NCBI GenBank assembly: GCA_037439485.1
Contig: JBBIVY010000003.1
Coordinates: 1,452-65,451 of the forward strand
Length of the DNA stretch: 64,000 nt
Reading direction: 5' to 3'
Origin: Planctomycetota bacterium
GTDB lineage: Bacteria; Planctomycetota; DG-23; DATKVD01
Part shown: in pieces, positions 9,106-63,388 of the stretch
How the letters are laid out: each line of letters opens with the position of its first letter
How positions within the stretch are numbered: the stretch's first letter is position 1
Program-made: the position numbers and the translations under genes
The notes under the pieces: model-generated
Told to the model about the DNA's origin: nothing
What the model saw: the letters and a program-made list of their open reading frames with translations, nothing else
Databases searched by the model: none

Positions 9106-9138
9106 TACAATGGTTCAGGCGGGACGGATGCTTCGTTC

Positions 9139-9214: not shown

Positions 9215-9239
9215 AGACGGATCGCAGGGGGAACGCCCG

Positions 9240-10961: not shown

Positions 10962-11025
10962 TACGGACGGCTGTGCCGGCCCCCCGAAAGGGGGTGTCTG
11001 GAGGGAAGAAAGGAACTGCACGTTC

Positions 11026-12189: not shown

Positions 12190-12223
12190 TGGGGCCCTTT
12201 AGGACTCTATAGCGAGGCGTCCG

Positions 12224-13993
<1,770 letters not shown>

Positions 13994-14012
13994 GCCGCCG
14001 AATACGGCGGAA

Positions 14013-14166: not shown

Positions 14167-14281
14167 TGATACGGATTTCCGCACTTGCCGGTTTTGCCCC
14201 CTTGGGTAGAATTTGAACGGACGATAAGGCCGTTCCGTTTCCCCTAACGGGGCCACAGGGCCCCCCGACGGAGGATGGACG

Positions 14282-15541: not shown

Positions 15542-15616
15542 CGGAGGCGGCGCGGCGCACGGAAGGTGAAGCTCTTTTGGCCCCCGCGGCGGGGCGGAGC
15601 CGGAAAGGAGATCGTC

Positions 15617-16258: not shown

Positions 16259-16304
16259 CGGCGGGGGCCGGCGGCCTCTCCCGCCGGGCGATCGGAGGAC
16301 GGCC

Positions 16305-16901: not shown

Positions 16902-16948
16902 TCTGCGCCGGGCGGCGCGACGGCACTCGGGGGACGTGGGCTCGGACG

Positions 16949-17671: not shown

Positions 17672-17788
17672 AAGCGGTTTTGGGTTTTAGGTTTTGGCTT
17701 TTGGATTGAAGAGCAAACGGCGCCCGGATGGCGGGCCTTGCCGTGAATCCAAAATCCAAAAGCCAAAACAGGAAAAAAGGAGGTCGCG

Positions 17789-18763: not shown

Positions 18764-18796
18764 GCCGAGCGGATCGTGTTGCCGGGGAGCGCAGGC

Positions 18797-19669: not shown

Positions 19670-19717
19670 CGGCGCGCCGCGGGACGAGGTGATCTGGGGG
19701 GAGAAAGGCTGGTCGAC

Positions 19718-49682: not shown

Positions 49683-50829
49683 GATGGACCTCGCAATAGA
49701 TGTCCTCGATGCGGCGGATGGACGGGGCCAGGCGATAGTCGCGCGAGACGATTTCGCGCGCGGCGCATCCCATCGCGGCGCGGCGGGCGGGATCCGCCAG
49801 CAGGCGGAGCGTTTCGCGCGCGAGCGCGGGCACGTCCTCGCGCTCAATTATAGCGCCGGCGCGGCCGTTTTCCAGCACGCTTTCGAGTCCGCCGATGCGC
49901 GTCATCACGATCGCCCGGCCCGCGCCCATCGCCTCCAGCAGCGCGTACGGCATCGCCTCCCACCGCGAACTCATGACGAAGACGTCCAGGAGCGCAAAGA
50001 GGTCGAGCACGTCGTCGCGCTCGCCGGCGAAGTGGAAGACGTCGTCGAGCCCCTGCTCATGGGCCAGGGCCTTGAGTTGCCCCTCGTACGAACCCTTGCC
50101 CACGAGCAGGAAGTGTACGCCGGGGGCCGATTCGCGGATGAGCTTCGCCGCGCGGATGAAGACGTCGTATCCCTTCTGTCGCCCCAGCCTCCCGATGCTG
50201 CCGACGATGGGCGCCCCCTCGGGCAGGCCCAGTTCGCGCCGAAGGGACGCGCTGGGCGGGCGCAGGGCGAGTTCGTCGTCGCTGAGCCCGTTTACGATCG
50301 TCACGACCTGGTGCGGAAGCGCGGCGCCGCTCTGAATGGCGACCTCGCGTTCGTGCGGGCTGACGGCGATGAGCCTGTCGGTCACGCGCCCGGCGAGGAA
50401 TTCGAGCGACTTGTAGCACCACCCCGTGAACCTGCCGAACCCCGCGGTGAACGAGAAGCAGTGAGGCGTATAGACGACCCACGGCCGCCCCGTGAAGAAC
50501 GCGGCCATCCGGCCCAGAAAGCCGGCCTTGGAACTGTGGCAGTGGACGACGTCGTAGTTGGCGCGGTGGAAGAGACGGATGAGGCGGATGAGCGCCCGCA
50601 GGTCGGCGACGGGCGAGACCTGGCGCGTCATCGGGATGATGTGGACGACGAACCCCTCCGCGCGCAGTGCGTCCACGTCGCGGTGAAAACCCTTCGGGTC
50701 GCGCAGGTCCGAGGCCACCAGCTCCAGCTCGAACCGCGAGCGGTCGATGCGCCGCATCAGCTCCAGCACGTGTTTTTTCGTGCCGTTCTCGGTTGCCTCC
50801 ACCACCTCCGCGACGCGCAGTCGTTTCAT
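49669..50829 (-). CDS. glycosyltransferase family 4
   Basis: ORF 49669-51273 trimmed to ATG 50829 (MKRLRVAEVVEATENG...; ATGA overlap with upstream gene); GT-B fold, EX7E-type region FAGERDDVLDLFALLDVFVMSSRWEAMPYALLEAMGAGRAIVMT. Confidence 0.85.
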   Translation of the reverse strand: MKRLRVAEVVEATENGTKKHVLELMRRIDRSRFELELVASDLRDPKGFHRDVDALRAEGFVVHIIPMTRQVSPVADLRALIRLIRLFHRANYDVVHCHSSKAGFLGRMAAFFTGRPWVVYTPHCFSFTAGFGRFTGWCYKSLEFLAGRVTDRLIAVSPHEREVAIQSGAALPHQVVTIVNGLSDDELALRPPSASLRRELGLPEGAPIVGSIGRLGRQKGYDVFIRAAKLIRESAPGVHFLLVGKGSYEGQLKALAHEQGLDDVFHFAGERDDVLDLFALLDVFVMSSRWEAMPYALLEAMGAGRAIVMTRIGGLESVLENGRAGAIIEREDVPALARETLRLLADPARRAAMGCAAREIVSRDYRLAPSIRRIEDIYCEVHHERR

Positions 50830-52511
50830 GATCGCTTGAGCTTTCTCCTCGCCCATCCGAGCGCGTCGTGCCATTCCTCGATGTGGAGGAGGTGGACGCC
50901 GAGCGCGAAGACGGCCGCGCCGACGCCGGAGACGATGACGAGCCCGGCGATGCCCTTCATGCTGCGGCCGGCGGGCACGACGAGCATGAGCGCCCGGATC
51001 GCGAGGCCCATGGCCGCGGTGGCGAGCGCGACTTTGCCCACCGTCGGCAGCGCGTGCGCGAGCATCGTCTTCCACAGGCGCGCGTCGCGATAGACCCGCG
51101 CGAGGAGCACGAAGAGCAGCAGCACCTTCAGCGCCTTGGAGGCCGCGTAGGCGAGGTTGAACGCGCCCGCCATGTGCAGCGCTCCGGCGCGGTTGAAGTC
51201 GTCCGCGGGCAGCCAGAGGATGACACACGCGAGGAGCAGCAGGTTGACCAGCGACGCGACGATGCCGGTCCACGTGGGGGTCCAGGTCTCGCGCGCGGCG
51301 TAGAAGAATTGCAGGAGCACGATCTCAAGCCCGAAGAAGACGTAGCCGAGCGCGTACCACCGCACCGCTTCGGCCGTCATCGCCACGTCGGCCGGAGTGA
51401 ACTTGCCGCCGCCGAAGATCACCTCGACGATCGGCCGGGCGAGGAGCGTCATCGCCACGGTAAGCGGGAGGAAGACGAGGAAGATGATGCGCACCGCCTT
51501 GGCGAGGATGTCGAAGAGCGGCTCGATCTGCTTTTTGGCGAAATACTCGCTGAGGAACGGAAAGATGGCGATGGAGAGCGCCACCGGGAAGAGTTGGATG
51601 GGGATGTCGACCGGCGCGCGGGCGTAGGGGACGATGGTCATGGCCTTGCCGCCCAGGACGGCGGAGAGGAGCACGTCCTCGCCGCGGTTGCGCAGGAAGG
51701 AGACGAGCACGCCCGCGACCAGCGGCAGCATCAGGAAGCCCAGCCCTCGCATGGCCGGGGTGTTGAGCTTCATCTCGAAGCGGAAGCGGCGGATTTCGCC
51801 CCGCAGGCCCCACGCGTAGAGGGCGAGCTTCGCCGCGGCCCCGAGGACGATGCCCGCGATGAGTCCCCAGACGATGTACCGGTCGACGTGATCGACCGGC
51901 GCGTGCGTCGCCCGGCCCCAGGCCTTGAACCCCGCCCACGCCACCACGAGCGCGAGGCACGGCACGACCTTCACGAACACCTGGTCGCCGAAGGCGGCGA
52001 GCTGAAAGCGCTTGTACGAGTTGAGAAGCATGTAGCCCGTCACCGCGAGCGTGAGGAACAGGATCGCGGGCGCGAGCGCGATGAGATACTTCGCCGATAA
52101 CGCCTCGTCCTCCGGGCCGAAGCTCGTGAGCGTCGCCACGATGGGCCGCGAGAAGAACATGCACGCCGCGGCGAGGAGCACGAGGAACACGACCTGCACG
52201 TTGATGATCGAGTTGATGAACCGCCACGCGCCGTCCTCGCCCACGCGCTTCTTCTCCGCGGCAAGCTCCGGCAGAAACGTTGGCCGGAGCAGCTTGTCCC
52301 ACGTGCGGAAGATGTCCTGCGTGAGGCGATAGACGTAGTTGAACGCGTTGGCCGTCGCCTCGGTACCGAGGAGGCGCGAGAGGATCATCTTCATGACGAT
52401 GCCGGTGAGATACCCGGCGGCGGTCAGGATGCCTATCCCCGCGGCGGCCTTGGCCATCTTCCGGCCGTCGGAGGCGTTCGTCGCAGGGGCAGGTGCGATG
52501 TCGTCAGCCAT
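50826..52511 (-). CDS. MurJ/MviN-family MOP-superfamily flippase
   Basis: 561 aa, ~14 TM; MviN-like N-terminal region GIGILTAAGYLTGIVMKMILSRLLGTEATANAFNYVYRL; start overlaps upstream GT4 stop. Confidence 0.8.
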   Translation of the reverse strand: MADDIAPAPATNASDGRKMAKAAAGIGILTAAGYLTGIVMKMILSRLLGTEATANAFNYVYRLTQDIFRTWDKLLRPTFLPELAAEKKRVGEDGAWRFINSIINVQVVFLVLLAAACMFFSRPIVATLTSFGPEDEALSAKYLIALAPAILFLTLAVTGYMLLNSYKRFQLAAFGDQVFVKVVPCLALVVAWAGFKAWGRATHAPVDHVDRYIVWGLIAGIVLGAAAKLALYAWGLRGEIRRFRFEMKLNTPAMRGLGFLMLPLVAGVLVSFLRNRGEDVLLSAVLGGKAMTIVPYARAPVDIPIQLFPVALSIAIFPFLSEYFAKKQIEPLFDILAKAVRIIFLVFLPLTVAMTLLARPIVEVIFGGGKFTPADVAMTAEAVRWYALGYVFFGLEIVLLQFFYAARETWTPTWTGIVASLVNLLLLACVILWLPADDFNRAGALHMAGAFNLAYAASKALKVLLLFVLLARVYRDARLWKTMLAHALPTVGKVALATAAMGLAIRALMLVVPAGRSMKGIAGLVIVSGVGAAVFALGVHLLHIEEWHDALGWARRKLKRS

Positions 52512-53712
52512 GGGGCGTCCTCAGGATGCGTTCCAGCGCGCTCAGCGTCGATTCGAGCGCGAATTCCCTGTCTATTAGAGCGCGGGCGCGGGCGGTTATG
52601 TCGTTTGCGCGCGCGGGATTCGCAAGCGTCTCGCGGGCTGCCGAGGCAAGCGCGAGGGCGTCGCCGCTCGGGACGAGCCGGCCCGTCTCGCCGTCTTTGA
52701 CCACCTCGGCGATACTCCCCGCGTCCGACGCGATTACCGGCACGCCCACGGCCATCGCTTCGAGGACGATGTTGGGGATGCCGTCGCGGTCGCCCGCGCG
52801 ATCGACCACGCTCGGCACGACGACAATCTCGGCGCGCGCGAGCAGGTCCATCAGCGCGTCGTGGCGCATCCATCCGCGAAGCTCGACCGGGGCCGCGGTC
52901 TCGGCGATGAGCTGTTCAAGCCGCACGCGCTCGGGGCCTTCGCCCACGATGACGCCTCGGAGGGCGGGCGCGTCCTTCGCAAGCTCGGCGTACGCGCGTA
53001 TAAAGAGATCGAAGCCCTTCTTGCGCTCGAGCCGCCCGGCGGCCAGCAGGAATCCCTTGCTTTGGGCGCGGCGGGGGAGGGTGGCGCGGTCGATGCCGTG
53101 GTGGATGAGCGTCACCTTCGGCGCACGGCACGGGCCCGCGACCTCGCGCAGGCGGTCCGCCGCGGCGCGGTTGCACGTCACCACGGCGTCCGCGAGCGCG
53201 GCCTTTTCCCGGAGCATCCGCCCCTCCACGAATACGTCCCGCGCGTGCGCGGCGAAGGAGAATTCCATGTCGAACGCGCGGGCGATGATCCAGCCGATGG
53301 TCGCCGGAAGGCTGGCCCAGAGGGCGTGGACTCGGCGGACGCCGAGTTTCCGCAGTTCATATCCGACGGCGAGGGCGCGCGGGACGTTCCGCATCGCCTG
53401 GAACGTATCGCGTCCGTGGCGCCCGTGTCCGCGGTAGAGCGTCCAGAGGATGGCGAGCCACTTCAGCGGGTGCGTAAAGGCGAAGCGGACCTCGGCCGAA
53501 AGCGCGCGCCAGGTGAAGTACCCCGGCCGCAGGAGGACGGTCGCGTCGATGCCGGCGGCCTCCGGCGCATCGGGCAGTTTCTTTGTGGCGACGATGACGA
53601 AATCAAGCCCGCGCGCGCGGAGTTCCCGAAGCTCGCGCAGGAGGAACGTCTCGCTCGGTTTCGGGTATTCGCCGGCGATGAACGCTACCCGGACTCGGGG
53701 CTCATCCGCCAT
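52504..53712 (-). CDS. glycosyltransferase family 4
   Basis: 402 aa; GT-B; C-terminal EAMAVGVPVIASDAGSIAEVVKDGETG motif; overlaps neighbours at both ends. Confidence 0.85.
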   Translation of the reverse strand: MADEPRVRVAFIAGEYPKPSETFLLRELRELRARGLDFVIVATKKLPDAPEAAGIDATVLLRPGYFTWRALSAEVRFAFTHPLKWLAILWTLYRGHGRHGRDTFQAMRNVPRALAVGYELRKLGVRRVHALWASLPATIGWIIARAFDMEFSFAAHARDVFVEGRMLREKAALADAVVTCNRAAADRLREVAGPCRAPKVTLIHHGIDRATLPRRAQSKGFLLAAGRLERKKGFDLFIRAYAELAKDAPALRGVIVGEGPERVRLEQLIAETAAPVELRGWMRHDALMDLLARAEIVVVPSVVDRAGDRDGIPNIVLEAMAVGVPVIASDAGSIAEVVKDGETGRLVPSGDALALASAARETLANPARANDITARARALIDREFALESTLSALERILRTPHG

Positions 53713-54538
53713 GGTTCTTCACCCGCTCGACGGTCAGATCGATCGCCCGCCGCTCCCACGCGAGCGAGTAGTAGTCGTGGTTGGCCCCCTCGACGGTGAC
53801 GAACTCCGCGGGAATGCCGTGCTTCGAGGTGAATGCGGAGTAATGTTCGCCCGCGCCCCCGGCCTCCTTGTCGGCGCCGCCATAGACGAAGAGCGCGCGG
53901 CCCTTGAAGCCGCGGAACGCCGCCATCACGTCGCGGGATGAATCCTTCGGATCGCGTTCACCCGCGGCGCGCTTCTCGCCGAAGAGGGCCTTCTTCACCG
54001 CGCGGAAATTCACCGCGCCCGTGACGAGCTTCTTCCACGTCGCCAGGCGGAAGAGCTTGCGCGCGTAGTTCCCGGCCTGGTCCTTCGTCCGCGCGATCTT
54101 CTCGGCGGCCTTCTTCTCGGGGATGAAGGGCAGAGTTGAGAGAAGCACGAGGTCGCGCACGTCGGAGGCGAGCGTCGCGGCGCCGATGGCGACGTTTCCC
54201 CCGGAGCAGAGGCCCCAGAGGACGATGCGGTTCCCCGGCGCGCGCGTCTTCGCCAACTCGACGGCGCGGCAGGCGTCCTCGATCATCGTGTCGAGCGTCG
54301 CGGAGCCTTGCGCCCCGGTCGAGTCGCCTCGCCCGCGGAAGTCAAACCGCAGCGACGCCGCGCCTTCGCGAGCGAGCGAGCGGGCGAGCTTCACCATGAA
54401 CCGATGCGGCCCGATGCGGTACCCGCCCCAGCCGTGCAGCGTGATCACCGTCACCCCGAGAGGCGCTGCTCCCTCCGGCTCGGTCCAGACGCCGAGGAGC
54501 CGGTCGTTGCCGCTTGGGATGTGGACGAATTCTTCCAT
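53702..54538 (-). CDS. alpha/beta hydrolase (first of tandem pair)
   Basis: ORF 53702-54625 trimmed to ATG 54538 (MEEFVHIPSGNDRLLGVW...); HGWGGY, nucleophile elbow GLCSGG, FVYGGADKE, C-terminal His region. Confidence 0.75.
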   Translation of the reverse strand: MEEFVHIPSGNDRLLGVWTEPEGAAPLGVTVITLHGWGGYRIGPHRFMVKLARSLAREGAASLRFDFRGRGDSTGAQGSATLDTMIEDACRAVELAKTRAPGNRIVLWGLCSGGNVAIGAATLASDVRDLVLLSTLPFIPEKKAAEKIARTKDQAGNYARKLFRLATWKKLVTGAVNFRAVKKALFGEKRAAGERDPKDSSRDVMAAFRGFKGRALFVYGGADKEAGGAGEHYSAFTSKHGIPAEFVTVEGANHDYYSLAWERRAIDLTVERVKNHGG

Positions 54539-54552: not shown

Positions 54553-54641
54553 GTAGGGGGCTCCCGACGTGTCGGGATGGCCCCGTGCTCCTTCTTCTCG
54601 ACAAAGAAGAAGAGCGGGCGGACACATGGGTCCGCCCCTAC
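54553..54641. repeat. composite REP-like element (GTAG - three hairpins - CTAC) filling the gap between the two hydrolase genes
   Basis: GTAG(54553-54556), TCCCGACGTGTCGGGA, CTTCTTC-tcgacaaa-GAAGAAG, GGGCGGAC-acatgg-GTCCGCCC, CTAC(54638-54641); CTA is rc TAG stop of 54638-55453. Confidence 0.55.
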
Positions 54642-55453
54642 AGAGAATAGATCCAGTCAACAGTCGCCGTGATCAGTTCCTTCGCCTCGACCCGTTCGAC
54701 CCGGTCCCAGATGACCTGTTCCTTGACGCCGACGGCTTCCGCCTTCGCCCCCGCGGCGCGCAGGGTCGCGGCAAGCTCTTCGAGGGCCGGGGAAACCTTG
54801 GCATTGAAGGCGATCTGGACGAGCAGCGCCCGGCCGGCAAACCTTCCGGCGAGCGCCTTCGCGTCGAGCGAGGAAATGCCTTCGATGAGCTTCTTGCCGA
54901 TGGCGAGGCCGTCGAGGTCGAGGAATCCGTCCGCCTGAATCTGCGCGAGGACCGCGTCGCGGCCGGTGGCCTTCTTGCCGGTCGTCATCATCTCCTTGAT
55001 CATCCGTCGGCGGAGGATTTCGTCGACGTATTTCGCGCCGGAGAGAATCGGTTCCCAGAGGACGACGGCCGCGGTAGGTGACTGCGCCACGGAGGCGAGC
55101 GCCAGCGTCGCGCCGAGCCGGAGGCCGAGGAGCGTGAGCGCCGCGGCGGGGAACCGTTTCGCAAGCTCCGCCCGCGCGGCGGCGATATCTTCGAGCCATG
55201 CGTCGAGCGTCGCGTCCTCGGATTCACCCGAGGAGTCGCCTTCGCCTGAAAGGTCGAACCGGAGCGTCGCGATGTCTTTGGAGGCAAGCGCCCGGGCCAG
55301 CTCGACGAGCACGCGGTGGGAGAACTTCTTCTCTTCGGCGAAGGGATGGACGACGAGGACGGCCGAGCGCGGCGACGCCGGGGCGTGCAGGATGCCGGTG
55401 AGTTCCCGCCCGGCGGCTCGAAAGCGGATCGGCTCCTCGGTCGGCATGGTCAT
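54638..55453 (-). CDS. alpha/beta hydrolase (second of tandem pair)
   Basis: 271 aa; VLVVHPFAEE, GLRLGATLAL, C-terminal catalytic region; ATGA overlap with upstream ACP stop. Confidence 0.75.
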   Translation of the reverse strand: MTMPTEEPIRFRAAGRELTGILHAPASPRSAVLVVHPFAEEKKFSHRVLVELARALASKDIATLRFDLSGEGDSSGESEDATLDAWLEDIAAARAELAKRFPAAALTLLGLRLGATLALASVAQSPTAAVVLWEPILSGAKYVDEILRRRMIKEMMTTGKKATGRDAVLAQIQADGFLDLDGLAIGKKLIEGISSLDAKALAGRFAGRALLVQIAFNAKVSPALEELAATLRAAGAKAEAVGVKEQVIWDRVERVEAKELITATVDWIYSL

Positions 55454-55707
55454 TTGCCCAGTTTGCCCCGCACGAGCTCGGCGATGTGCGCGACGGTGTC
55501 GAACCGCGACGGGTCGAAGTCGTCGTCCTCGAACGTGATGCCGAACACCGCCTCCGTTCCGACCACCAGCTCCGACACCTGCACCGAGTCGATCCCGTAG
55601 GCCTCCGCCAGCTTCGCGTTGACGTCGATCTCTTCGGGCTTGAGCTTGAGGAAGAGGCGCTCGACCATCATCTCGCGCAGCGCGTCCTCAATCGATTTCT
55701 CCGTCAT
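55450..55707 (-). CDS. stand-alone acyl carrier protein
   Basis: 85 aa; phosphopantetheine-attachment motif LAEAYGIDSVQVSELV (DS*V), acidic helix II; overlaps neighbours (operon-coupled). Confidence 0.8.
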   Translation of the reverse strand: MTEKSIEDALREMMVERLFLKLKPEEIDVNAKLAEAYGIDSVQVSELVVGTEAVFGITFEDDDFDPSRFDTVAHIAELVRGKLGK

Positions 55708-56552
55708 GGCCGCTCCGTTTCGTTTTTCGCGAACCTGCCGAGGGGTTTCCAGACGATGTCCTTATCGTCGGGGCCGGACTCCTTTTCGAACATCTGCCGC
55801 CAGCGTTCCTTGAACAGCATCCCGTGCTTGATGATCGTGTAGGCGTTCCGGCTCCTGCGGACGCCCGCGGTCGTCGCGCTCTCGTCGTGCAGCATCGTCA
55901 CCGACGGCTCGTAAAGGATCCGCCAGCCCTTCGAGCGCGCCCGGTAGCACCAGTCGATGTCCTCGTACTGCACCGGATTGAACGCCTCGTCCAGCCCGCC
56001 GATCTCGCGGACCACCGCGCGCTTCAGCATCAGGCAGGCCGAGATGCCGAACTGCACCTCGCGCGGCTCGTTATAGCGCGGATCGTTGGCGCGTTCGCCT
56101 CGGCCGATGTACTGCACCCGGCCGGTGCGCGAGATCGCCCCTCCTGCGAATTGTATCATATCGGGATTGCCTGCGAATACCAACTTCGGCGCCACAATTC
56201 CGACGCGATCTCCGCCCTCCAGTGTCCGGCGCAGCTTTCCCAGCCAGTCCGGATCGCCCACCGCGACGTCGTTATCCATGAATACGAGGAACTCGCCCGT
56301 CGTGTTGGCGATTCCCTGGTTCCTTCCGGTCGAGCACCCGACGTTCCGGTCGTTGGCGATCGCCGTCATTCGCCGCCCGGCCTCTCTGTACTGGGTGACC
56401 GAGATGGCGAGAAGCCCCCTCGTTCCGTCCGTCGAGGCGTTATCGATGACGCACAGTTCCCAGTCTGCATCGCGCGATTCGAGCAACGTCGCGAGGCAGT
56501 TCTTCGTCAGCTCCGCGTTGTTGTGCGTCAGCACGATGATGGAGTAAGTCAT
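55704..56552 (-). CDS. glycosyltransferase family 2
   Basis: ORF 55704-56558 (GTG) best start ATG 56552 (SD GGAGG; ATGA overlap with E1-beta stop); GT-A motifs IVLTHNN, DNASTDGT, DNDV, QYEDIDWCYRA. Confidence 0.85.
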   Translation of the reverse strand: MTYSIIVLTHNNAELTKNCLATLLESRDADWELCVIDNASTDGTRGLLAISVTQYREAGRRMTAIANDRNVGCSTGRNQGIANTTGEFLVFMDNDVAVGDPDWLGKLRRTLEGGDRVGIVAPKLVFAGNPDMIQFAGGAISRTGRVQYIGRGERANDPRYNEPREVQFGISACLMLKRAVVREIGGLDEAFNPVQYEDIDWCYRARSKGWRILYEPSVTMLHDESATTAGVRRSRNAYTIIKHGMLFKERWRQMFEKESGPDDKDIVWKPLGRFAKNETERP

Positions 56553-57526
56553 CCGCACAACCTCCGCGCCGCCTCGGCGATGCTCTTGCGCGAGGGCAGC
56601 GCCGCCTGCTCCAGCACCGGCGAGCAGGGGACCGGGATATCGGGCATGGTGACGCGCGTCACGGGGCCGTCGAGGTAATCGATGGCCTCTTCCGCGATGC
56701 GCGCGGCGAGCTCGGCCATGACGCCACAGGTGCGCGGGCCTTCCTCGACGAGCACCGCGCGGCCGGTCCGCTTCACCGATTCCATCACGTGCGGCGAATC
56801 CATGGGCGAAAGCGTCCTCAGATCAATGACCTCCGCCTCGATTCCTTCCGTCGAGAGCGCCTCGGCCGCGGCGAGCGACTCGTGAACCATGCGCGAATAT
56901 CCGACGATCGTGACGTCCTTCCCGGCGCGGACGGTCGCGGCCTTGCCGAGCGGGATGGCCTCGGCGCCCTCGGGCACTTCGCCCTTCTGCGGATAGAGGA
57001 CGCGGTTCTCGATGAAGATCACGGGGTTCGGCTCGCGAATCGCGGCGAGCAGCAGCCCCTTCGCGTCCGCCGGGGTCGAAGGCGCGACGACCTTGATCCC
57101 GGGCGTATGGACGAAATACGCCTCGACCGCCTGCGAGTGCGTGGGCCCATAGGCCCGCCCGGCGCCGCCCACCGCGCGGACGACGAGCGGGACGGTCGAC
57201 TTCTCGCCGTAGACGTAGCGGAACTTGGCCGCGTGGTTGACGAGCTGATCCATCGCGAGCAGGATAAAGTCGCTGAACATGATCTCGACGACGGGCCTGC
57301 GCCCCATGAGAGACGCGCCGACCGCGACGCCCACGAAGCCCGCCTCGCTGATGGGCGTCTCGACGACGCGCTCCGGGCCGAACTTGTCCTGCATCCCGCG
57401 CGTCACGCCGAAGGCGCCGCCATAGAGGCCGATGTCCTCGCCCATGAGGAACACGCGCTCGTCGCGCTCCATCTCTCCGGTGAGCGCCTCGCGGATGGCT
57501 TCGCTGGTCGAGAGGATTCGAGTCAT
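56549..57526 (-). CDS. 2-oxoacid dehydrogenase (pyruvate/acetoin/BCKDH-type) E1 component beta subunit
   Basis: ORF 56549-57817 trimmed to ATG 57526 (MTRILSTSEAIREALTGEMERDERVFLMGEDIGLYGGAFGVTRG...), transketolase-like Pyr and C-terminal domains; ATGA overlap with E1-alpha stop. Confidence 0.85.
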   Translation of the reverse strand: MTRILSTSEAIREALTGEMERDERVFLMGEDIGLYGGAFGVTRGMQDKFGPERVVETPISEAGFVGVAVGASLMGRRPVVEIMFSDFILLAMDQLVNHAAKFRYVYGEKSTVPLVVRAVGGAGRAYGPTHSQAVEAYFVHTPGIKVVAPSTPADAKGLLLAAIREPNPVIFIENRVLYPQKGEVPEGAEAIPLGKAATVRAGKDVTIVGYSRMVHESLAAAEALSTEGIEAEVIDLRTLSPMDSPHVMESVKRTGRAVLVEEGPRTCGVMAELAARIAEEAIDYLDGPVTRVTMPDIPVPCSPVLEQAALPSRKSIAEAARRLCG

Positions 57527-58482
57527 TCGAACACCCCCTCGGTCAGCCGGGCGACGTCGGCCAACGGGGACGACCGGGCGAAGTCCTCGGCCTCTTTCAC
57601 CTCCTTCGCGGCGGTCTCGGCAATCGCGTCGAGTTCGGATTCCGTTGCAGCGCGCTTGTCGAGGAGGACGCCGCGGAGCAACTCGATGGGGCAGCGGGCC
57701 TTCCACGCGGTCTCTTCGTCGCGCGTGCGGTAGAGGCACTGGTCGGAGCGGGAATGCCCGCAGAAGCGATAGGTCATGCACTCGAGGAACGCGGGCCCTC
57801 CGCCCGAACGCGCCCATTCCACCGCGCGACCGGCGGCCTCCGCGACGGCGAGCACGTCGTTGCCGTCGACGGTCTCAACGCCGAGGCCGAACCCGCGCAC
57901 GCGGTCGGAGAGCTTCGACACGGCGCAGCTTTCCTGGAAAGGCGTGCTCATCGCGTAGAGATTATTCTCGCAGACATAGACGACCGGAAGCTTCCAGATC
58001 GCGGCGAGGTTGAGGCATTCGTGAAAGACGCCCTGGTTGGCGGCGCCGTCGCCCATCATGCCGACGACGACGTTGGGAATCTTGCGCTGTTTGAGCGCGA
58101 GCGCCGCGCCGGTGGCGATGGGAAGCCCGCCGCCCGTGATGCCGTTCGAGCCGAGAAAGCCGACGTCGAAACAGGCCATGTGCTGGCTGCCGCCTCGGCC
58201 TTTGGCATAGCCCGTTTCGCGGCCGAAGATCTCGGCCATCATGAGTCTGGGGTCGCCGCCCTTGGCGAGGAAATGCCCGTGTCCGCGGTGGGTGCCGTTC
58301 ATCCAGTCGCCGTCGCGCAATACGGACGCCACGCCGACCGGCACGGCCTCCTGCCCGATGCAGAGGTGACAGGTCCCGGCAACCTCGCCCTTGAGGAAAA
58401 GGTCGCTCAGCCGCTCCTCGAAGCGCCGGATGAGGAGCATGTCGTGGTAGAGTTTCTTCAGGCGGTCGGCGTCGAGGTTCAT
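57523..58482 (-). CDS. 2-oxoacid dehydrogenase E1 component alpha subunit (TPP-binding)
   Basis: ORF 57523-58647 trimmed to ATG 58482 (MNLDADRLKKLYHDMLLIRRFEERL...); TPP motif GDGAANQGVFHECLNLAAIWKLPVVYVCENNLYAMS; 1-nt gap to upstream KS-like stop. Confidence 0.85.
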   Translation of the reverse strand: MNLDADRLKKLYHDMLLIRRFEERLSDLFLKGEVAGTCHLCIGQEAVPVGVASVLRDGDWMNGTHRGHGHFLAKGGDPRLMMAEIFGRETGYAKGRGGSQHMACFDVGFLGSNGITGGGLPIATGAALALKQRKIPNVVVGMMGDGAANQGVFHECLNLAAIWKLPVVYVCENNLYAMSTPFQESCAVSKLSDRVRGFGLGVETVDGNDVLAVAEAAGRAVEWARSGGGPAFLECMTYRFCGHSRSDQCLYRTRDEETAWKARCPIELLRGVLLDKRAATESELDAIAETAAKEVKEAEDFARSSPLADVARLTEGVFE

Positions 58483-58483
58483 G

Positions 58484-59461
58484 TCAACTCGCGATCCTGC
58501 GGAGGACGACAGCGGCGGCCCCGGACTCGTCGGCGCTGACGACGGCGGCGGCGACGGGCGATTCGGCGAGGCCCAGTCGCGCGGGCGGAGTCGTGGCGTC
58601 GAGGACGAGCGCGGCGAGGGCGACGCCCGTGAGCGCGCCCGCGGCACCGCAATCGCCGACCGCCTTGACGAAGTCCACGGCCTTCAGGCCCGCCGAGACG
58701 GCAAGACCGTCCGTCGGGGCGTCGACGAGGAGCCAGTCGAGCTGCGGGCGGCCGAGCGACGCCTGCGCCAGCGCCCGCGAGAGCGCCTCGTCGGCCGTGC
58801 GGGCCAGGCCGCATCCGGCGACCTCCGCCATCCCTCGCGCGCCACGCTTCAGGACGTCAAGTTCGCGCTCCAGCACCAGCGTCGCCGCAGCGTCAAACGC
58901 CTGAGCGGAGGCTCCCCGGCGCGTCGTCTGAGTATACGTATCTCCAGCGCCCGCAAGCATTACGGTCATTTTTCCGGCGCGCAATTCGTCGAACGCCTGC
59001 GCCAGCGCCTCGACCCCGGCGGCCCGTCCCGAGTTGAAGTTGAAGCTCGTCCCCATCAGCTTGAACTCGATCGCCGCGAGACTCAGCGAGGTGTTGGGAT
59101 AGGCGTGGATGAAGAGCAGGGGGCTCGCCAGTTTCGCGCCCTGCTCGCGCAGCATCTTCAGATACGATTCCTGCGTCGCGATGTTGCCGAACTTGGTGCC
59201 GAAGCTCATGCCGACGGCGTCGCGGCTTGCGCTTTCCGGCGTCAGCTTGGCGTCGCGCAGCGCCAGCGAGGTCGCGGCGAGGACCATCGCGCTCGTGGGG
59301 TCGAGGTAGGTCTTGGCCCCGGTGACGAAGTCCTCGATGCGCAGCGCGGGCGCTGCGACGGGCTCAAACCCCTTGGCGAGCGTCGCGGCAAGGCTGTCGC
59401 GCCCGATGCCCAGCGGCCCGACCGTGCCGATTCCCGTGACGAAGATGCGCGAGGCGGTCAT
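58484..59461 (-). CDS. beta-ketoacyl synthase-like protein lacking the active-site Cys (chain-length-factor-like KS partner)
   Basis: ORF 58484-59527 trimmed to ATG 59461 (MTASRIFVTGIGTVGPLG..., ATGA overlap with KS stop); thiolase fold; position of catalytic ACSS occupied by GTSFNFNSGRAAG; no His-His pair. Confidence 0.7.
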   Translation of the reverse strand: MTASRIFVTGIGTVGPLGIGRDSLAATLAKGFEPVAAPALRIEDFVTGAKTYLDPTSAMVLAATSLALRDAKLTPESASRDAVGMSFGTKFGNIATQESYLKMLREQGAKLASPLLFIHAYPNTSLSLAAIEFKLMGTSFNFNSGRAAGVEALAQAFDELRAGKMTVMLAGAGDTYTQTTRRGASAQAFDAAATLVLERELDVLKRGARGMAEVAGCGLARTADEALSRALAQASLGRPQLDWLLVDAPTDGLAVSAGLKAVDFVKAVGDCGAAGALTGVALAALVLDATTPPARLGLAESPVAAAVVSADESGAAAVVLRRIAS

Positions 59462-60678
59462 GGCATTCTCCTCAGCACGACGGCGGAGTTGGATCCGCCC
59501 AGACCGGAGGAGTTGGAGATCGCGCATCGGACGTCATGTTTCTCCGCCCCCGCGGTGCAATAGTGCAGGTCGCAGTCGGGGTCGGGCGTCTGGTAGTTGA
59601 TCGTGGGCGGAACGATGCCCGTCTCGATCGTCCGCGCCGTGACGAGCGTTTCGACGATGGACGCCGCGCCCATGAGGTGGCCGATCATCGACTTGATGCC
59701 GTTGACGGGGATCTCCGAGGCGCGCTTCCCGAGCACGGCCTTGATGGCGGCGGTCTCGGAGGCGTCGTTATACTTTGTGGAGGTCGCGTGGGCGTTGACG
59801 TGGTCCACCTCGCCGGGGCCGACGCGGGCGTCTTCCAGGGCGCGCATCATCGCGCGGACGATGGACGACCCGTCCTTGTCCGGGGCGGTGAGGTGGAACG
59901 CGTTGTTGTTCGTGTGATGCCCGGCCAGCTCGACGCGCGCTTCGCGGCCGCGGGAACGCGCGTGCGACTTCGTCTCCAGCACGATCGCCCCGGCGCCTTC
60001 GCCGAAGATCGTGCCGCTGCGGTTCTTGTCGAACGGTCGTACCTTGTCCGTCGTCATCGTCCGAAGTGCGAGGAGGCCGCTCCAGCAGTATTCGCTGATG
60101 ACGTCGTATCCGCAGACGACGGCCACCTTCGCCCGTCCCGCGCGCACGAGGTCCGTCGCGTAGCCGAGCGCGGCGTTGCCCGAGGCGCACGAAAGCGACA
60201 GCGTCACCCGCGGCCCCGCGATGCCCCAGAGGTTGCCGAGGCAGGCCGTCGCGTGGCCGAGCAGGCTTTCGCGGATGGCCTCCTCGTCCGGCTCGGTGCC
60301 ATAGGCGGCGGAGGCGTACATCTCTTCGCACGCCTCGGCGGGGCCGAAGTTCGTGGCCATGACGAGCGCGGTGTCGGCGGGGGGCAGGTCGCTCTGAGTG
60401 AGTCCGGCGGAAGTCAGCGCCTCGCGGACGGCCCAGGCGCTGAAGCGTAACCCGAGATCGGCGGAGCGGAGCGTCGGGTCCTCGGGGAAGTCCATCGCGG
60501 CGACGGCCGATTCGGGGACCATCCCGGCGACCTTCACCCGGTGCTCGGCGGGGTCGAACCGCTCGATGGGGTGGATGCCGTCCTTGCCCGCGACGAGGCT
60601 CTCCCAGAGGAGATCCACGCCGAGGCCGAAGGGCGACACGCACCCGAGACCCGAGATGACGACCGGCTCGCTGCTCAC
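59458..60678 (-). CDS. beta-ketoacyl-ACP synthase (FabF/KAS II-like), catalytically complete
   Basis: ORF 59458-60684; GTG 60678 preferred (SD GAGGAG 8 nt upstream); active-site LSLSCASGN, His motifs HVNAHATST and IGHLMGAAS. Confidence 0.85.
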   Translation of the reverse strand: MSSEPVVISGLGCVSPFGLGVDLLWESLVAGKDGIHPIERFDPAEHRVKVAGMVPESAVAAMDFPEDPTLRSADLGLRFSAWAVREALTSAGLTQSDLPPADTALVMATNFGPAEACEEMYASAAYGTEPDEEAIRESLLGHATACLGNLWGIAGPRVTLSLSCASGNAALGYATDLVRAGRAKVAVVCGYDVISEYCWSGLLALRTMTTDKVRPFDKNRSGTIFGEGAGAIVLETKSHARSRGREARVELAGHHTNNNAFHLTAPDKDGSSIVRAMMRALEDARVGPGEVDHVNAHATSTKYNDASETAAIKAVLGKRASEIPVNGIKSMIGHLMGAASIVETLVTARTIETGIVPPTINYQTPDPDCDLHYCTAGAEKHDVRCAISNSSGLGGSNSAVVLRRMP

Positions 60679-60713
60679 AATCACCGCTCCTCGTGGCCTG
60701 CGCTATCGCACAG

Positions 60714-60751
60714 CGCCCTCACTCTGACCCTCTCCCCCAAGGGGAGAGGGG
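60714..60751. repeat. REP-like element family 2, copy in fabG-like gene 3' flank
   Basis: gccctcactctgaccctctcccccaaggggagaggggaa; 38-bp near-identical to 30756-30793. Confidence 0.6.
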
Positions 60752-60760
60752 AATGGGGAA

Positions 60761-61522
60761 TTACATCCTCAGCCCCCCGTCGACGACGAACACCTGTCCT
60801 GTAATATAATCGGCCCAGCCGGACGAAAGGAATAAGACGATTCCGGCGACGTCCTCGGGCACGCCGAATCGGCGCATGGGAATGAGGTCGAGGAGGCGTT
60901 CGCGCGTCGAGATCGGGGTGTCCTTGACGAAGTCGGTGTCGATGACGCCCGGGGTGACGGCGTTGACGGTGACGTTGAAGGCGGCCAGGTCGCGGGCGGC
61001 GGCATGGGTGAAGCCGATCATCCCGGCCTTGGCGGCGGCGTAGTTCGCGCGTTTGACGTCGCCGGTGAGCCCCGCGACGCTGGAGATGTTGATGATCCGG
61101 CCGGACTTCCTGTGGGTCATCACCCGCGAGGCGGCCTTCGCGCAGAGGAACGCGCCCTTGAGGCTCACGTCCACCACGTCGTCCCAGTCGGATTCCTTCA
61201 TGAACGGGAGGAACGTGTCGCGCGAGATGCCGGCGTTGTTGACGAGGATGTCGAGGGCGCCGAACGCCTCGGCGGAGGCCTTCATCATGGCCGAGACGGC
61301 CTCGGCGCTGCGGACGTCGCAGCCGTAAGCCAGGGCGGAGCCGCCGAACGCCCGGATCTCCCCGACGACCGCCTCGGCGGCCTCGCGGTGGTTCGTGTAG
61401 TTGACGAGCACCCTGGCCCCGGCCTGCGCGAGCGTCAGGGCGATCCGGCGGCCGATGCCGCGCGACCCTCCCGTGACCACGGCCGACTTGCCCTCCAGCC
61501 ACCTCGGAACCGATGCGCTCAC
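60761..61522 (-). CDS. 3-oxoacyl-ACP reductase (FabG-type SDR ketoreductase)
   Basis: ORF 60761-61555; GTG 61522 preferred (SD AAAGGAGGGGGG upstream; the alternative ATG lies inside a REP palindrome); GKSAVVTGGSRGIG Rossmann motif, NNAG, catalytic Y..K region. Confidence 0.85.
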   Translation of the reverse strand: MSASVPRWLEGKSAVVTGGSRGIGRRIALTLAQAGARVLVNYTNHREAAEAVVGEIRAFGGSALAYGCDVRSAEAVSAMMKASAEAFGALDILVNNAGISRDTFLPFMKESDWDDVVDVSLKGAFLCAKAASRVMTHRKSGRIINISSVAGLTGDVKRANYAAAKAGMIGFTHAAARDLAAFNVTVNAVTPGVIDTDFVKDTPISTRERLLDLIPMRRFGVPEDVAGIVLFLSSGWADYITGQVFVVDGGLRM

Positions 61523-61541
61523 CGCAGGCCCCCCTCCTTTT

Positions 61542-61600
61542 TGTAGCACAGGCATTCCTGCCTGTGATGCTTATGACAGGCAAGAATGCCTGTCCCACAA
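61542..61600. repeat. REP-like element family 1, double-hairpin copy (GTAG + two palindromes + CCACAA)
   Basis: tGTAGcacaggcattcctgcctgtg atgcttat gacaggcaagaatgcctgtc ccacaa; coordinates +/-1; intergenic between fabG-like and lipoyl-protein genes. Confidence 0.6.
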
Positions 61601-61607
61601 TGAGCGC

Positions 61608-62102
61608 TCACGATCGACCCTCCTCGACCTGCTGCTGGACGTGCTCTTCGGTCACGACGTCGACGCCGAGGCGCTTTCCGAGCGCCGCGATGTCGATGCC
61701 GCGTTCCTTCGCCAGCCGCCGGGCGCGGGGCGTTGCCCGGACTCGGTCTTCCGCCGGCATCGCCGGGGCTGCGGGTTTCGAGGGCGCCGCCGCGCGGCCG
61801 GTCGCGGTTGCGAGATACTCCGCCATCATCCGCGCGTTCTCCTCCGACACGTCGAGGAGCGGCTCGTCCGGTTCGCCCACGAGCGCCACGACGTAGCCGA
61901 GCGGCACTTCGCTCTTCTCGGGGGCGAGGATATGCCGGAGCGTCCCGGCCGCCTCGGCTTCGAGTTCGAAATTCGCCTTGTCGGTGATGACGTCGACAAG
62001 GACGTCGCCCTTTTCGACGCGGTCGCCGACGCTCTTGTGCCAGGGGCCGAGCGTGGCTTCGAGCGTGTTCGCGTCGAATTTGGGCAGCGCGACCTTGAAC
62101 AC
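61608..62102 (-). CDS. lipoyl-domain + E3-binding (peripheral subunit-binding) domain protein lacking the E2 acyltransferase catalytic domain
   Basis: ORF 61608-62180; preferred start GTG 62102 (SD GGAGA, gives M-FKVALPKF...), alternative ATG 62135 lies in a REP hairpin; lipoyl-lysine motif VDVITDKANFELEA; PSBD motif ATPRARRLAKERGIDIAAL; ends after linker (no catalytic DHRxxDG domain). Confidence 0.75.
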   Translation of the reverse strand: MFKVALPKFDANTLEATLGPWHKSVGDRVEKGDVLVDVITDKANFELEAEAAGTLRHILAPEKSEVPLGYVVALVGEPDEPLLDVSEENARMMAEYLATATGRAAAPSKPAAPAMPAEDRVRATPRARRLAKERGIDIAALGKRLGVDVVTEEHVQQQVEEGRS

Positions 62103-62127
62103 GGTGTTTCTCCGTGGCTTTGGTGGG

Positions 62128-62180
62128 GCAGACATTCCTGTCTGCCCCCCGAATGACAGGCAGGAATGCCTGTCCCACAA
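62128..62180. repeat. REP-like element family 1, second double-hairpin copy
   Basis: gcagacattcctgtctgc cccccgaat gacaggcaggaatgcctgtc ccacaa; same architecture as 61542-61600; lies between lipoyl-protein start and GT4 stop. Confidence 0.6.
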
Positions 62181-62188
62181 ACTTCATA

Positions 62189-63388
62189 CTAACGTCCGCG
62201 CGCGCGCTCCGCAAGCACCTCGTCGTAGACGCGCTCGATTCCTTCGGCGGTGAGCCCGGCGTCGAACCTCGATGCGGCCGCCGCGGCCCGCGAGCCCATC
62301 GACGCGCGAAGGGCGCTTGAGCCGAGCAGGTCCGAAAGCGCCCCGGCCAGGGCCGGCACGTCGCCGAACGGCACCAGGAGGCCCGTTTCGCCGTGCTCGA
62401 TGATCTCCGGCAATCCCCCGGCGCGCGTGCCGACGACGGGCTTGCCCATCGTCATGGCCTCCACCGCCGCGCGGCCGAACGGCTCGTTACGCGAGGGGAG
62501 TACCACGACGGTGCTGTCGATCAGGCATGAGGCGACGTCGTTCCGCCGGCCGGCGAAGATCACGACGCCCTCGAGGCCGAGCGTGCAAACGAGCTTGCGC
62601 AGGTGCGCCAGGTGCGCGGCGTCGTCGGGCGACATCGCTTCGCCGACGAAGAGCACTCGCAGCGAGGGGAACTTCTGGCGCGCCGCGCCCAGGGCGGCGA
62701 TGAGAAATTCGTGCCCCTTCCAGGGCGTCATCTGCCCGACGAGCGTGACAAGCGGAGCCTCGGGCGGAATGCCGAACTCGAACCTCACGCGGTCGGGCCG
62801 GGCGGAGGCGAGAAGCGATGCGCGGTCGATGCCGTTCATGACGAGGCGCACTTTCCCGGCGCCGGCGCGGCCGGCCCGAGCGAGCACGCTCTTCTCGACG
62901 GCGCCGCTGATGCAGATGACTCGGTCGGCAAACCGGAGCAGCGTTCGAGCGCCCGCGCCGAGATCGACGAGGTCCCGCACGTGCCACACCGAGCCCGTGC
63001 GCCGGAGCGCCGCGGCGGGTCCGGCCGAGAGGAACGCCGTGGTCGTGTTCGCGTGGACGATGTCGATCCTGCGTTCGGCGATGATGCGCGAAAGGCTGAG
63101 CGTGGAGAGCCCGACGTCGGCGAGCCCGGCCGCGACGGCGGGGATGGCCCTCGCGCGGCGGATGCGGCGGAGGCGGACGGTGATCTGCTCGATGCCGGCG
63201 ACGCGCACGGCGTCGGCGAAGGGGCCTTCGGGGCAGGCGACGACGGGACGGAACCGCCGGCGGTCGATGCGCGCGAGGACCTCCAGCAGGCTTATCTCGG
63301 CGCCCGAGATTCTTGCCGAGTGATCCACGCAGAGCACATTGGCCGGGCCTTCCCGTCCCGATGCATCGGGACCCGCAGGCGGGTTCAT
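62189..63388 (-). CDS. glycosyltransferase family 4
   Basis: 399 aa; GT-B; EAMTMGKPVVGTRAGGLPEIIEHGETG; ATGA-type overlap with upstream lipoprotein gene. Confidence 0.85.
   Translation of the reverse strand: MNPPAGPDASGREGPANVLCVDHSARISGAEISLLEVLARIDRRRFRPVVACPEGPFADAVRVAGIEQITVRLRRIRRARAIPAVAAGLADVGLSTLSLSRIIAERRIDIVHANTTTAFLSAGPAAALRRTGSVWHVRDLVDLGAGARTLLRFADRVICISGAVEKSVLARAGRAGAGKVRLVMNGIDRASLLASARPDRVRFEFGIPPEAPLVTLVGQMTPWKGHEFLIAALGAARQKFPSLRVLFVGEAMSPDDAAHLAHLRKLVCTLGLEGVVIFAGRRNDVASCLIDSTVVVLPSRNEPFGRAAVEAMTMGKPVVGTRAGGLPEIIEHGETGLLVPFGDVPALAGALSDLLGSSALRASMGSRAAAAASRFDAGLTAEGIERVYDEVLAERARGR

Follow-up and report, generated by a model that had tools for sequence, protein, structure and literature searches.

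The window analysed here is a stretch of 64,000 nucleotides from a Planctomycetota bacterium (GenBank assembly GCA_037439485.1, contig JBBIVY010000003.1, positions 1,452 to 65,451), and its subject is a cassette in which the E1 alpha and E1 beta subunits of a thiamine diphosphate (ThDP)-dependent 2-oxoacid dehydrogenase accompany a lipoyl carrier that lacks an E2 catalytic core (LipPSBD, a lipoyl domain followed by a peripheral subunit-binding domain, PSBD), a ketosynthase (KS) with a chain-length-factor (CLF)-like partner, a ketoreductase (KR), an acyl carrier protein (ACP) and two proteins of the alpha/beta-hydrolase fold (Hyd1 and Hyd2). Coding genes were recognised by the G+C content of third codon positions (GC3 0.83-0.93, in a window of 60-69% G+C), and domains of the locus proteins were assigned by Pfam and NCBIfam profile searches (Table 1). 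Between 63975 and 48333 one closely packed gene series runs along the minus strand, on which all cassette genes lie, with GC3 values of 0.83-0.92. The genes from KS to Hyd2 overlap or abut, and 4-nt overlaps at the KS/CLF, E1 alpha/E1 beta, E1 beta/GT2 (GT, glycosyltransferase), GT2/ACP and ACP/Hyd2 junctions, the first of them an ATGA over the KS stop codon, indicate translational coupling. The series is most likely part of a conserved operon for glycan biosynthesis (exopolysaccharide or O-antigen-like), of which the window holds at least about 15.6 kb and which homologous upstream genes carry about 5 kb past the window end. The 8.8 kb beyond that end were read from an independent Logan contig (L001) that encodes an identical LipPSBD, and they contribute genes for AAT-family, coiled-coil, 957-aa DUF6250/3-keto-disaccharide-hydrolase-like and PEGA/TPR proteins. 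The module is set among polysaccharide or glycoconjugate genes and does not belong to a natural-product cluster.

Table 1. Genes of the minus-strand series between 63975 and 48333 of the window, with their profile matches.
Feature	Coordinates	Strand	Profile matches and remarks
Putative lipoprotein, 196 aa	63385-63975	minus	no Pfam match
GT4a, GT4 glycosyltransferase	62189-63388	minus	Glycos_transf_1 2.1e-34; directly upstream of LipPSBD
LipPSBD, lipoyl + PSBD carrier, 164 aa	61608-62102	minus	Biotin_lipoyl, E3_binding
KR, FabG-type 3-oxoacyl-ACP reductase, 264 aa	60761-61555	minus	adh_short_C2 1e-62; TIGR01830 282 bits
KS, FabF-like ketosynthase, 408 aa	59458-60684	minus	ketoacyl-synt N and C domains
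CLF-like KS partner, 325 aa, shortened	58484-59461	minus	N-terminal KS domain match alone
E1 alpha, PDH/acetoin ('y') type, 319 aa	57523-58482	minus	E1_dh 2e-82
E1 beta, 325 aa	56549-57526	minus	Transket_pyr 6.5e-44; Transketolase_C 3.4e-41
GT2 glycosyltransferase	55704-56552	minus	Glycos_transf_2 3.4e-22
ACP, 85 aa, Ser in GIDSV	55450-55707	minus	PP-binding 1.3e-08
Hyd2, alpha/beta-hydrolase-fold protein	54638-55453	minus	TIGR03101-like, 134.3 bits, under cut-off
Hyd1, alpha/beta-hydrolase-fold enzyme	53702-54538	minus	TIGR03100-like, 112.5 bits, under cut-off
GT4b, GT4 glycosyltransferase	52504-53712	minus	Glyco_trans_1_4 1.3e-33
MurJ/Wzx-type flippase	50826-52511	minus	MurJ 7.5e-54 and Polysacc_synt_3
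GT4c, GT4 glycosyltransferase	49669-50829	minus	Glycos_transf_1 9.5e-36
Wzy_C / O-antigen-ligase-like membrane protein	48333-49682	minus	Wzy_C 1.6e-06, 28.4 bits (Pfam cut-off 31.7)

The E1 subunits are intact, as a preliminary description of this DNA had read them: both are full length, match Pfam and NCBIfam families of the pyruvate dehydrogenase (PDH) type and have the motifs expected of them. E1 beta scores 396.6 bits against the NCBIfam PDH E1-beta subfamily (cut-off 321) and aligns over its full length with the PSBD-binding E1 beta of G. stearothermophilus. E1 alpha reaches 365 bits with TIGR03182, slightly under the cut-off of 393.85, and its ThDP motif GDGAANQG...CENN and its GHS loop align with human PDH E1 alpha; the His of this loop presumably participates in lipoyl acylation. 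Scored against sequences from the Protein Data Bank (PDB), E1 alpha gives 211 bits with human PDH E1 alpha and 131-144 bits with E1 alphas of the branched-chain 2-oxoacid dehydrogenase (BCKDH) type, which suggests that it is PDH-like rather than BCKDH-like.

The sole E2-like gene of the window encodes LipPSBD, which the preliminary description had held to be a lipoyl and a binding domain with no acyltransferase core, and Pfam, AlphaFold2 and a 28-member alignment bear this out. Pfam finds Biotin_lipoyl (1.4e-11, residues 19-73, with the lipoyl Lys42 in a TDKA motif) and E3_binding (6.3e-06, residues 121-141, the first helix of that domain), and detects no other domain in the 164 residues, the 2-oxoacid_dh core included. 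The AlphaFold2 model (28 homologues, pLDDT 84) consists of a lipoyl barrel (1-77), a helix (86-102), a disordered linker (103-117) and three short PSBD helices within 125-163, after which the chain ends, and its top Foldseek matches are E2 lipoyl domains. Neither the window genes nor the 8.8 kb past its end encode an E3 or an E2 core, also in keeping with the earlier claim, and the same stretch contains no gene for a dehydratase, enoyl reductase, malonyl transferase, phosphopantetheinyl transferase (PPTase) or lipoate ligase. Errors of sequencing or assembly that shifted the frame of an E2 gene or cut it short might give such a picture, and the preliminary description had named a catalytic domain continuing in another frame as the finding to look for. 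This idea failed; beyond the short length of the gene nothing speaks in its favour. The 52 nt between the LipPSBD stop codon and KR, which hold a palindromic repeat, and the 86 nt between its start and the upstream GT4a gene leave no room for a hidden catalytic domain, and the identical protein is encoded on the independent Logan contig. Moreover, 95 relatives were found among 5.8 billion protein clusters, nearly all of 150-195 aa with the lipoyl domain and PSBD alone, so that more than 90 clusters from many samples share the architecture; in the alignment all 28 stop just after the PSBD with the E2 core absent, while the lipoyl Lys and the PSBD core A-x-P-x-A-R-R-x-A (RATPRARRLA in the window's subfamily) are invariant. 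An artefact is thereby refuted and deserves practically no weight, and the core-less lipoyl-PSBD protein is, on this comparison of sequences, a real family. The few annotated relatives (Planctomycetota, Kiritimatiellia) are named 'biotin/lipoyl-containing protein' or 'E3 binding domain-containing protein'. Core-less carriers of a more distant type, with 29-40% identity, follow E1 alpha and E1 beta in unrelated contexts in L006:8081-10901 (E1 beta-E1 alpha-LipPSBD-cupin) and L031:5706-10477 (E1 alpha...E1 beta-LipPSBD), and core-less lipoyl carriers may be a broader phenomenon.

The stand-alone ACP and the KS, CLF and KR reported earlier are likewise real, with the ACP gene lying just outside the interval originally delimited and the other three inside it. 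KS retains a Cys-His-His triad, read from its sequence, and scores 324.8 bits with fabF and 224.9 bits with AmcF (AmcF cut-off 325), both under cut-off; KR has its Ser...YxxxK residues. The ACP has as its top NCBIfam match the cispentacin ACP AmcB (66.2 bits, cut-off 80), with a weak DltC match in addition, and its Ser is kept in orthologues. The KS triad and the ACP Ser are the residues required of the minimal set of a type II polyketide synthase (PKS) or fatty acid synthase (FAS). In the CLF-like protein the column of the active-site Cys holds Arg in the window and in L007 and Trp in the Lentisphaerota loci L008 and L009, and none of these four proteins has there the Gln by which canonical CLFs carry out decarboxylative priming. 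The CLF-like protein scores 23.7 bits against the AmcG model (cut-off 80). Its family is rare and diverges fast, with only 7 representatives at E<=1e-30 among 1.84 billion. In the KS orthologue of the Lentisphaerae locus (L008:10950-11290) the N-terminal domain is interrupted by a 21-aa unit, GVPPVAERQARGLSYTEEHGA, repeated four times in tandem, and the corresponding site of the Victivallales orthologue holds a shorter insert.

Forty loci were fetched and the window proteins mapped onto them by tblastn; a scan of genome contigs, in which strict peptide patterns were used, returned 3 loci, and the taxonomic range given here is a lower bound. The order LipPSBD-KR-KS-CLF-E1 alpha-E1 beta is syntenic in seven independent loci, namely the window, L007, L019 and L023 (Planctomycetota-type), L035 (a Planctomycetota metagenome-assembled genome, MAG), L008/L028 (Lentisphaerae) and L009 (Victivallales), and it holds on every contig that has a window-type carrier (41-77% identity) and extends far enough. 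GT2-ACP-Hyd2-Hyd1 come next in the window, in L008/L028 and in L009, and GT2 always stands between E1 beta and ACP, occupying the same place in L008, L009, L028, L034 and L036. The block is always flanked in the seven loci by GT4, DUF6250-like and PEGA/TPR genes, and the cassette always lies inside a glycan locus (GT4s, GT2, MurJ/Wzx-like flippase, Wzy_C-like protein). Conservation extends to the upstream DUF6250-like, PEGA/TPR, lipoprotein and GT4 genes, orthologues of the 196-aa lipoprotein (44-57% identity) occurring at the same position in L002, L007 and L018-L023. In L035, where the order is GT4-GT4-LipPSBD-KR-x-KS-CLF-E1 alpha-E1 beta, gene calling missed the carrier, which is present. 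That a conserved gene is inserted between KR and KS in some loci was considered and rejected, as the inserts are unrelated to one another (proteins with ankyrin or HEAT-like repeats, one of 433 aa without Pfam match, or no open reading frame, ORF). KR directly follows LipPSBD in all window-type loci that reach past the carrier, except in the P0052-type loci L010-L012. In L010:10001-11367 the LipPSBD-type protein, another of the more distant ones, is followed by an AP_endonuc_2 (sugar isomerase-like) gene.

This synteny bears on whether E1 alpha and E1 beta simply belong to a housekeeping pyruvate or acetoin dehydrogenase, with the E2 core and E3 encoded elsewhere and the position in a glycan operon fortuitous. 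The scores of both subunits near or above PDH family thresholds, and their resemblance to human and bacterial PDH E1, would be expected under such a view. However, a fortuitous position does not account for cross-phylum synteny with KS, CLF, KR, GT2, ACP and the Hyd pair, nor for a carrier family that is never found with a core domain. In addition, the E1 alpha orthologues of the cassette share 64-85% identity and are set apart from other E1 alphas, and the named homologues annotated by NCBI are not called PDH E1 by its annotation pipeline (PGAP), which gives the next tier, at 54-61% identity, the name 'thiamine pyrophosphate-dependent dehydrogenase E1 component subunit alpha'. That tier is again glycan-linked where examined: of four members inspected, three are so in every locus fetched (L035, L036/L037, L038), and the fourth, P0171, is glycan-linked in L034, while in L033 its E1 alpha and a truncated E1 beta stand beside unrelated genes. 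A housekeeping origin is thus very improbable, and a dedicated role in acyl supply appears far more likely, because the genes are co-inherited as one block across phyla of the Planctomycetes-Verrucomicrobia-Chlamydiae (PVC) group.

Relatives outside the seven loci combine the parts differently. L036 (10001-20945), L037 and L034 (assigned to Armatimonadota by cluster names) have the order E1 alpha-E1 beta-GT2-ACP-Hyd2-Hyd1-GT4-GT4-MurJ, and in them the ACP/Hyd block is a closer partner of E1 alpha and E1 beta than the KS block is. In L004:1365-8448 (assigned to Kiritimatiellia by cluster names), L013:174-7344 and L016:2351-9524, LipPSBD-KR comes after a protein of 1,940-1,976 aa without Pfam domain, and the N-terminal half of this large protein shows homology to the 957-aa DUF6250/3-keto-disaccharide-hydrolase-like protein upstream of the cassette; in L004 and L013 the operon ends after KR. 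In a Binatia MAG (GCA_044450645.1; L038:9345-13621) genes for a PIG-L deacetylase, E1 alpha and E1 beta are accompanied by one for a 550-aa fusion of lipoyl domain, PSBD and a left-handed-beta-helix domain, which matches the WcaF family with 71.5 bits and also matches NeuD/PglB-type and HpsU polysaccharide acetyltransferases. The fusion would in effect have a sugar acetyltransferase in place of the E2 catalytic core, and it gives the strongest single clue that the acyl-lipoyl arm of this E1 clade is wired to a non-E2 sugar acyltransferase. A 481-518-aa PIG-L family deacetylase also lies between GT4a and LipPSBD in a Planctomycetota-type variant (L002:8196-9641 and L003); echoing L038, it hints that the acyl acceptor is perhaps a de-N-acetylated amino sugar.

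The fusion also bears on a non-oxidative alternative, by which E1 alpha and E1 beta would act as a carboligase, adding a two-carbon branch from pyruvate-derived hydroxyethyl-ThDP to a keto-sugar or an acyl-ACP, and the lipoyl protein would have some other or accessory role. PDH-E1-like enzymes have been reported as carboligases in branched-sugar pathways of the avilamycin and paulomycin type, and a study of the paulomycin cluster reportedly mentions a pyruvate-dehydrogenase-like system. The placing of the E1 clade in glycan loci, some of them without a nearby lipoyl gene, is compatible with such chemistry. However, neither the lipoyl Lys nor the PSBD varies within the carrier family, seven loci show the carrier in synteny with E1 alpha and E1 beta, and the GHS loop of E1 alpha is conserved; moreover, a fusion of carrier and sugar acetyltransferase beside E1 in L038 makes sense only if an acyl-lipoyl thioester forms. 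Carboligation is accordingly improbable, if less so than a housekeeping complex.

The remaining components, Hyd1 and Hyd2, have as their closest curated families the exosortase A-associated hydrolases 1 (TIGR03100) and 2 (TIGR03101), the cut-offs of which they do not reach (112.5 against 168.45 for Hyd1, 134.3 against 202.75 for Hyd2). Hyd1 possesses a Cys-His-Asp triad with the motif G-L-C-S-G, the Cys, His and Asp being invariant in 118 of 118 homologues, and it is proposed to be an acyl-thioester transferase. In Hyd2 an Arg takes the place of the nucleophile (G-L-R-L-G), and a catalytic His is lacking. The Arg is conserved in five loci, one of them from a Betaproteobacterium (the window, L008, L009, L036 and L040), and Hyd2 is probably a non-catalytic partner, a conserved pseudo-enzyme that in every case accompanies the Cys enzyme Hyd1. 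The betaproteobacterial locus, the sole match from a Hyd2 search of plasmids, lies on the 2.48-Mb replicon CP063167.1 of Variovorax paradoxus VAI-C (L040:1-17965), where a Hyd2-like protein with G-A-R-L-G and a Hyd1-like protein with G-M-C-S-G directly follow two nonribosomal peptide synthetase (NRPS) genes and a PPTase gene and precede Wza, Wzc, sugar transferase and GT genes. The same Arg/Cys pair stands there behind a different carrier-protein loading system. Since in the loci examined the pair recurs with a phosphopantetheinyl carrier next to polysaccharide genes, the most economical reading is that a glycan receives the carrier-bound thioesters which Hyd1 and Hyd2 off-load. Neither the hydrolases nor the ACP are mentioned in the 2006 PEP-CTERM paper, and a literature search on the function of exosortase-associated ACP and hydrolases gave nothing relevant.

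A further alternative assigns to this pair the work of the missing core. In E2 proteins of the AcoC type (PRK14875) a lipoyl domain is paired with an alpha/beta-hydrolase-like region in one polypeptide, and the cassette might represent a split version in which Hyd1 and Hyd2 replace the E2 core, the Cys of Hyd1 unloads the lipoyl arm onto holo-ACP or a glycan, and KS, CLF and KR are an optional elaboration in the PVC versions alone. The PRK14875 model is indeed matched by both LipPSBD (positions 5-108) and Hyd2 (positions 131-222), a Cys nucleophile suits thioester-to-thioester exchange, and L036, L037 and L034 combine E1 with GT2-ACP-Hyd2-Hyd1 and no KS or CLF. However, LipPSBD scores 67.2 bits against a cut-off of 307, over its 5-108 region alone, with the Hyd genes separate and 6 kb away, and the Hyd2 match is weak (16 bits, E 0.004) and of the kind that generic fold similarity produces; a special relationship between Hyd and the AcoC hydrolase region was dropped on this account. 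The pair also occurs with NRPS and PPTase genes where no E1 or lipoyl gene is present, as well as in the exosortase A family context, and its conserved partner is therefore the phosphopantetheinyl carrier, not the lipoyl arm. A split AcoC-like route is accordingly unlikely, although it has more in its favour than carboligation.

The data allow the construction of a model, which we favour tentatively and at something short of an even chance, in which E1, the core-less lipoyl carrier and the KS/ACP set make a short acyl decoration for a glycan without the use of coenzyme A (CoA). From the gene content, the intact active sites, the lack of an E2 core and E3, the carrier architecture and the synteny described above, we infer its substrate, each transfer step, the product and the acceptor as follows. 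The PDH-type E1 alpha2beta2 would decarboxylate a small 2-oxo acid, most likely pyruvate, and reductively acylate the lipoyl-lysine of LipPSBD, a step proposed because the motifs are intact and the chemistry of 2-oxoacid dehydrogenases is established. The PSBD would dock the carrier on E1 beta and/or recruit a housekeeping E3 for re-oxidation. Because there is no E2 core, the acyl-dihydrolipoyl thioester would be passed not to CoA but to a thiol of the cassette, either the active-site Cys of KS or holo-ACP, with the Cys of Hyd1 as a further candidate. KS and its non-catalytic CLF-like partner may then condense the acyl group with malonyl-ACP loaded by a housekeeping FabD, and KR would reduce the product to a short 3-hydroxyacyl-ACP (3-hydroxybutyryl, or a polyhydroxy chain should the step iterate), which is the expected product because no dehydratase or enoyl reductase was found. 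Hyd1, aided by Hyd2, could take the acyl group from ACP as a thioester and transfer it to a sugar of the repeat unit assembled by GT2 and the GT4s, as their gene association suggests, and the MurJ/Wzx-like protein would flip the repeat unit before its polymerisation or ligation by the Wzy_C-like protein, the sequence of which is hydrophobic and multi-pass. The proposed product is not exotic, as O-antigens carrying short hydroxyacyl groups, among them 3-hydroxybutanoyl and 3,5-dihydroxyhexanoyl, are known from bacteria. The preliminary description had proposed acyl-ACP priming, and the part of this proposal that stands is a dedicated, co-inherited acyl-supply cassette; supply of a starter to KS/CLF is one of several routes, since L036 has E1 alpha-E1 beta-GT2-ACP-Hyd2-Hyd1 without KS/CLF.

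Several observations weigh against this model. In the L036-type loci no lipoyl, KS, CLF or KR gene lies within 10 kb of E1 alpha and E1 beta, and in Kiritimatiellia loci LipPSBD-KR occurs without an E1 nearby; the parts can therefore be separated, and the transfers might run in an order other than the one proposed. The cassette, in the window and the 8.8 kb beyond, contains no homologue of the E2 acyltransferase catalyst, and literature searches found no description of a KS or an alpha/beta-fold enzyme primed directly from an acyl-dihydrolipoyl protein. An acetyl primer would be metabolically cheap, so that a dedicated E1 is puzzling, which hints at another substrate. E1 alpha is about equidistant (46-49% identity) from plasmid E1 alphas that PGAP annotates as pdhA or just generically, a comparison that therefore does not discriminate the substrate, and pyruvate would be a default guess, not a result. 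Finally, a homologue of Hyd1 is found by itself in the unrelated setting of L039, and the family is therefore broader than an off-loading role. A wider proposal, somewhat more doubtful but still to be taken seriously, is that the lipoyl arm serves as a general CoA-independent acyl donor for surface glycans, with a whole E1 clade, in Planctomycetota, Lentisphaerota, Armatimonadota and Binatia, detached from the E2 core. Its acceptors might then be a KS/CLF-ACP mini-synthase, a Cys-His-Asp transferase with its pseudo-enzyme, or a fused beta-helix sugar acetyltransferase.

Comparison with known systems places the cassette between several of them. It shares with exosortase A hydrolases 1 and 2 the arrangement of two adjacent paralogous alpha/beta-fold proteins by an ACP in polysaccharide loci, although no exosortase gene was seen among the window genes. 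In the exosortase A system the ACP is loaded by an AMP-forming ligase and a pyridoxal phosphate (PLP)-dependent decarboxylase is included, not E1 and a lipoyl protein. Dlt-type acylation likewise has a small carrier protein that brings acyl or aminoacyl groups, bound as thioesters, to a glycopolymer, but its loading and transfer enzymes are without homology to those of the cassette, and the analogy is one of logic alone. With the PDH and acetoin dehydrogenase complexes, AcoC and the E3-binding protein (E3BP), the cassette has in common a heterotetramer-type E1, the lipoyl lysine in a DKA motif and the canonical PSBD helix, whereas it is without a 2-oxoacid_dh core, an operon-encoded E3 and a CoA-directed step, and its carrier is a monomer-sized protein of 164 aa instead of the arm of a 24- or 60-mer core.

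A functional precedent, named already in the preliminary description, is quinocarcin biosynthesis, in which a ThDP enzyme of the QncN/QncL/QncM set loads a C2 unit on a lipoyl arm, from which it passes to a dedicated small ACP with no involvement of CoA (PMC6335953). The outline of E1, lipoyl arm and dedicated ACP without CoA is held in common with this set and its counterparts (NapB/D, SclQ1-4), which make glycolicacyl-ACP for tetrahydroisoquinolines and scleric acid, and a co-encoded stand-alone ACP is present in the cassette too. However, QncL/SclQ4 consists of a lipoyl domain together with a catalytic acyltransferase domain (PMC6335953), and the cassette lacks both this E2-type domain and any lipoyl-joined acyltransferase, so that the analogy is functional only. 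The Qnc E1 is transketolase-like and uses a ketose phosphate, whereas that of the cassette is of the PDH type, and the Qnc ACP feeds an NRPS, whereas that of the cassette stands with KS/CLF/KR, GT2 and the Hyd pair in a glycan locus. In cispentacin biosynthesis AmcF, AmcG and AmcB, a KS with a small partner and a dedicated ACP, carry out one C2 extension with a borrowed FabD (PMC10698177). The cispentacin/coronafacic acid set is similar in its FabF-like KS, shortened non-catalytic partner and dedicated ACP, as it is in the FabD borrowing proposed here, and the Amc models are the best or near-best curated matches of the ACP, KS and CLF, all three under cut-off. However, the Amc starter is 2-oxoglutaryl-AMP, whereas that of the cassette would come from E1 and the lipoyl carrier, and no AmcH-type adenylating loader, hot-dog or aminotransferase gene occurs in the cassette locus. 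The cassette is best described as an E1 and lipoyl carrier re-wired to non-E2 acceptors in glycan biosynthesis. No description of such a cassette or of core-less lipoyl-PSBD proteins was found in the open-access literature, an absence of evidence that does not prove novelty.

Should the relay exist, E1 and a lipoyl carrier would have been uncoupled from the E2 core and from CoA to form a dedicated supply of acyl groups for envelope polysaccharides, and lipoate would have a new use. The uncharacterised but widespread exosortase-type hydrolase 1/2 pair would gain a testable role in off-loading thioesters onto glycans, and short 3-hydroxyacyl or similar groups would be expected on the surface glycans of Planctomycetota, Lentisphaerota and Armatimonadota. 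The lipoyl-PSBD-WcaF-type fusion would offer biochemistry a simple two- or three-protein system.

Some features of the window lie apart from these questions. Palindromic repeat elements, of the form TGTGGGACAGGCATTCYTGCCTGTCA...GACAGGAATGYCTG together with a CCCCTCTCCCCTTGGGGGAGAGGGTCAGAGTGAGGGC type, occupy the intergenic segments 61556-61607, 62103-62188 and 60685-60760, where they create spurious ORF extensions, for example ORFs of 190 and 305 aa. The GT4c gene between the flippase and Wzy_C-like genes is hidden in the ORF list and to simple ORF filters because its frame stays open upstream across the flippase gene. An unrelated plus-strand cluster resembling type IV pilus or type II secretion genes lies at 9093-19669 and comprises three T2SSE ATPases, one T2SSF platform protein and four N-methyl pilin-like genes, after which 19670-23575 encodes a 1,301-aa protein without Pfam match.

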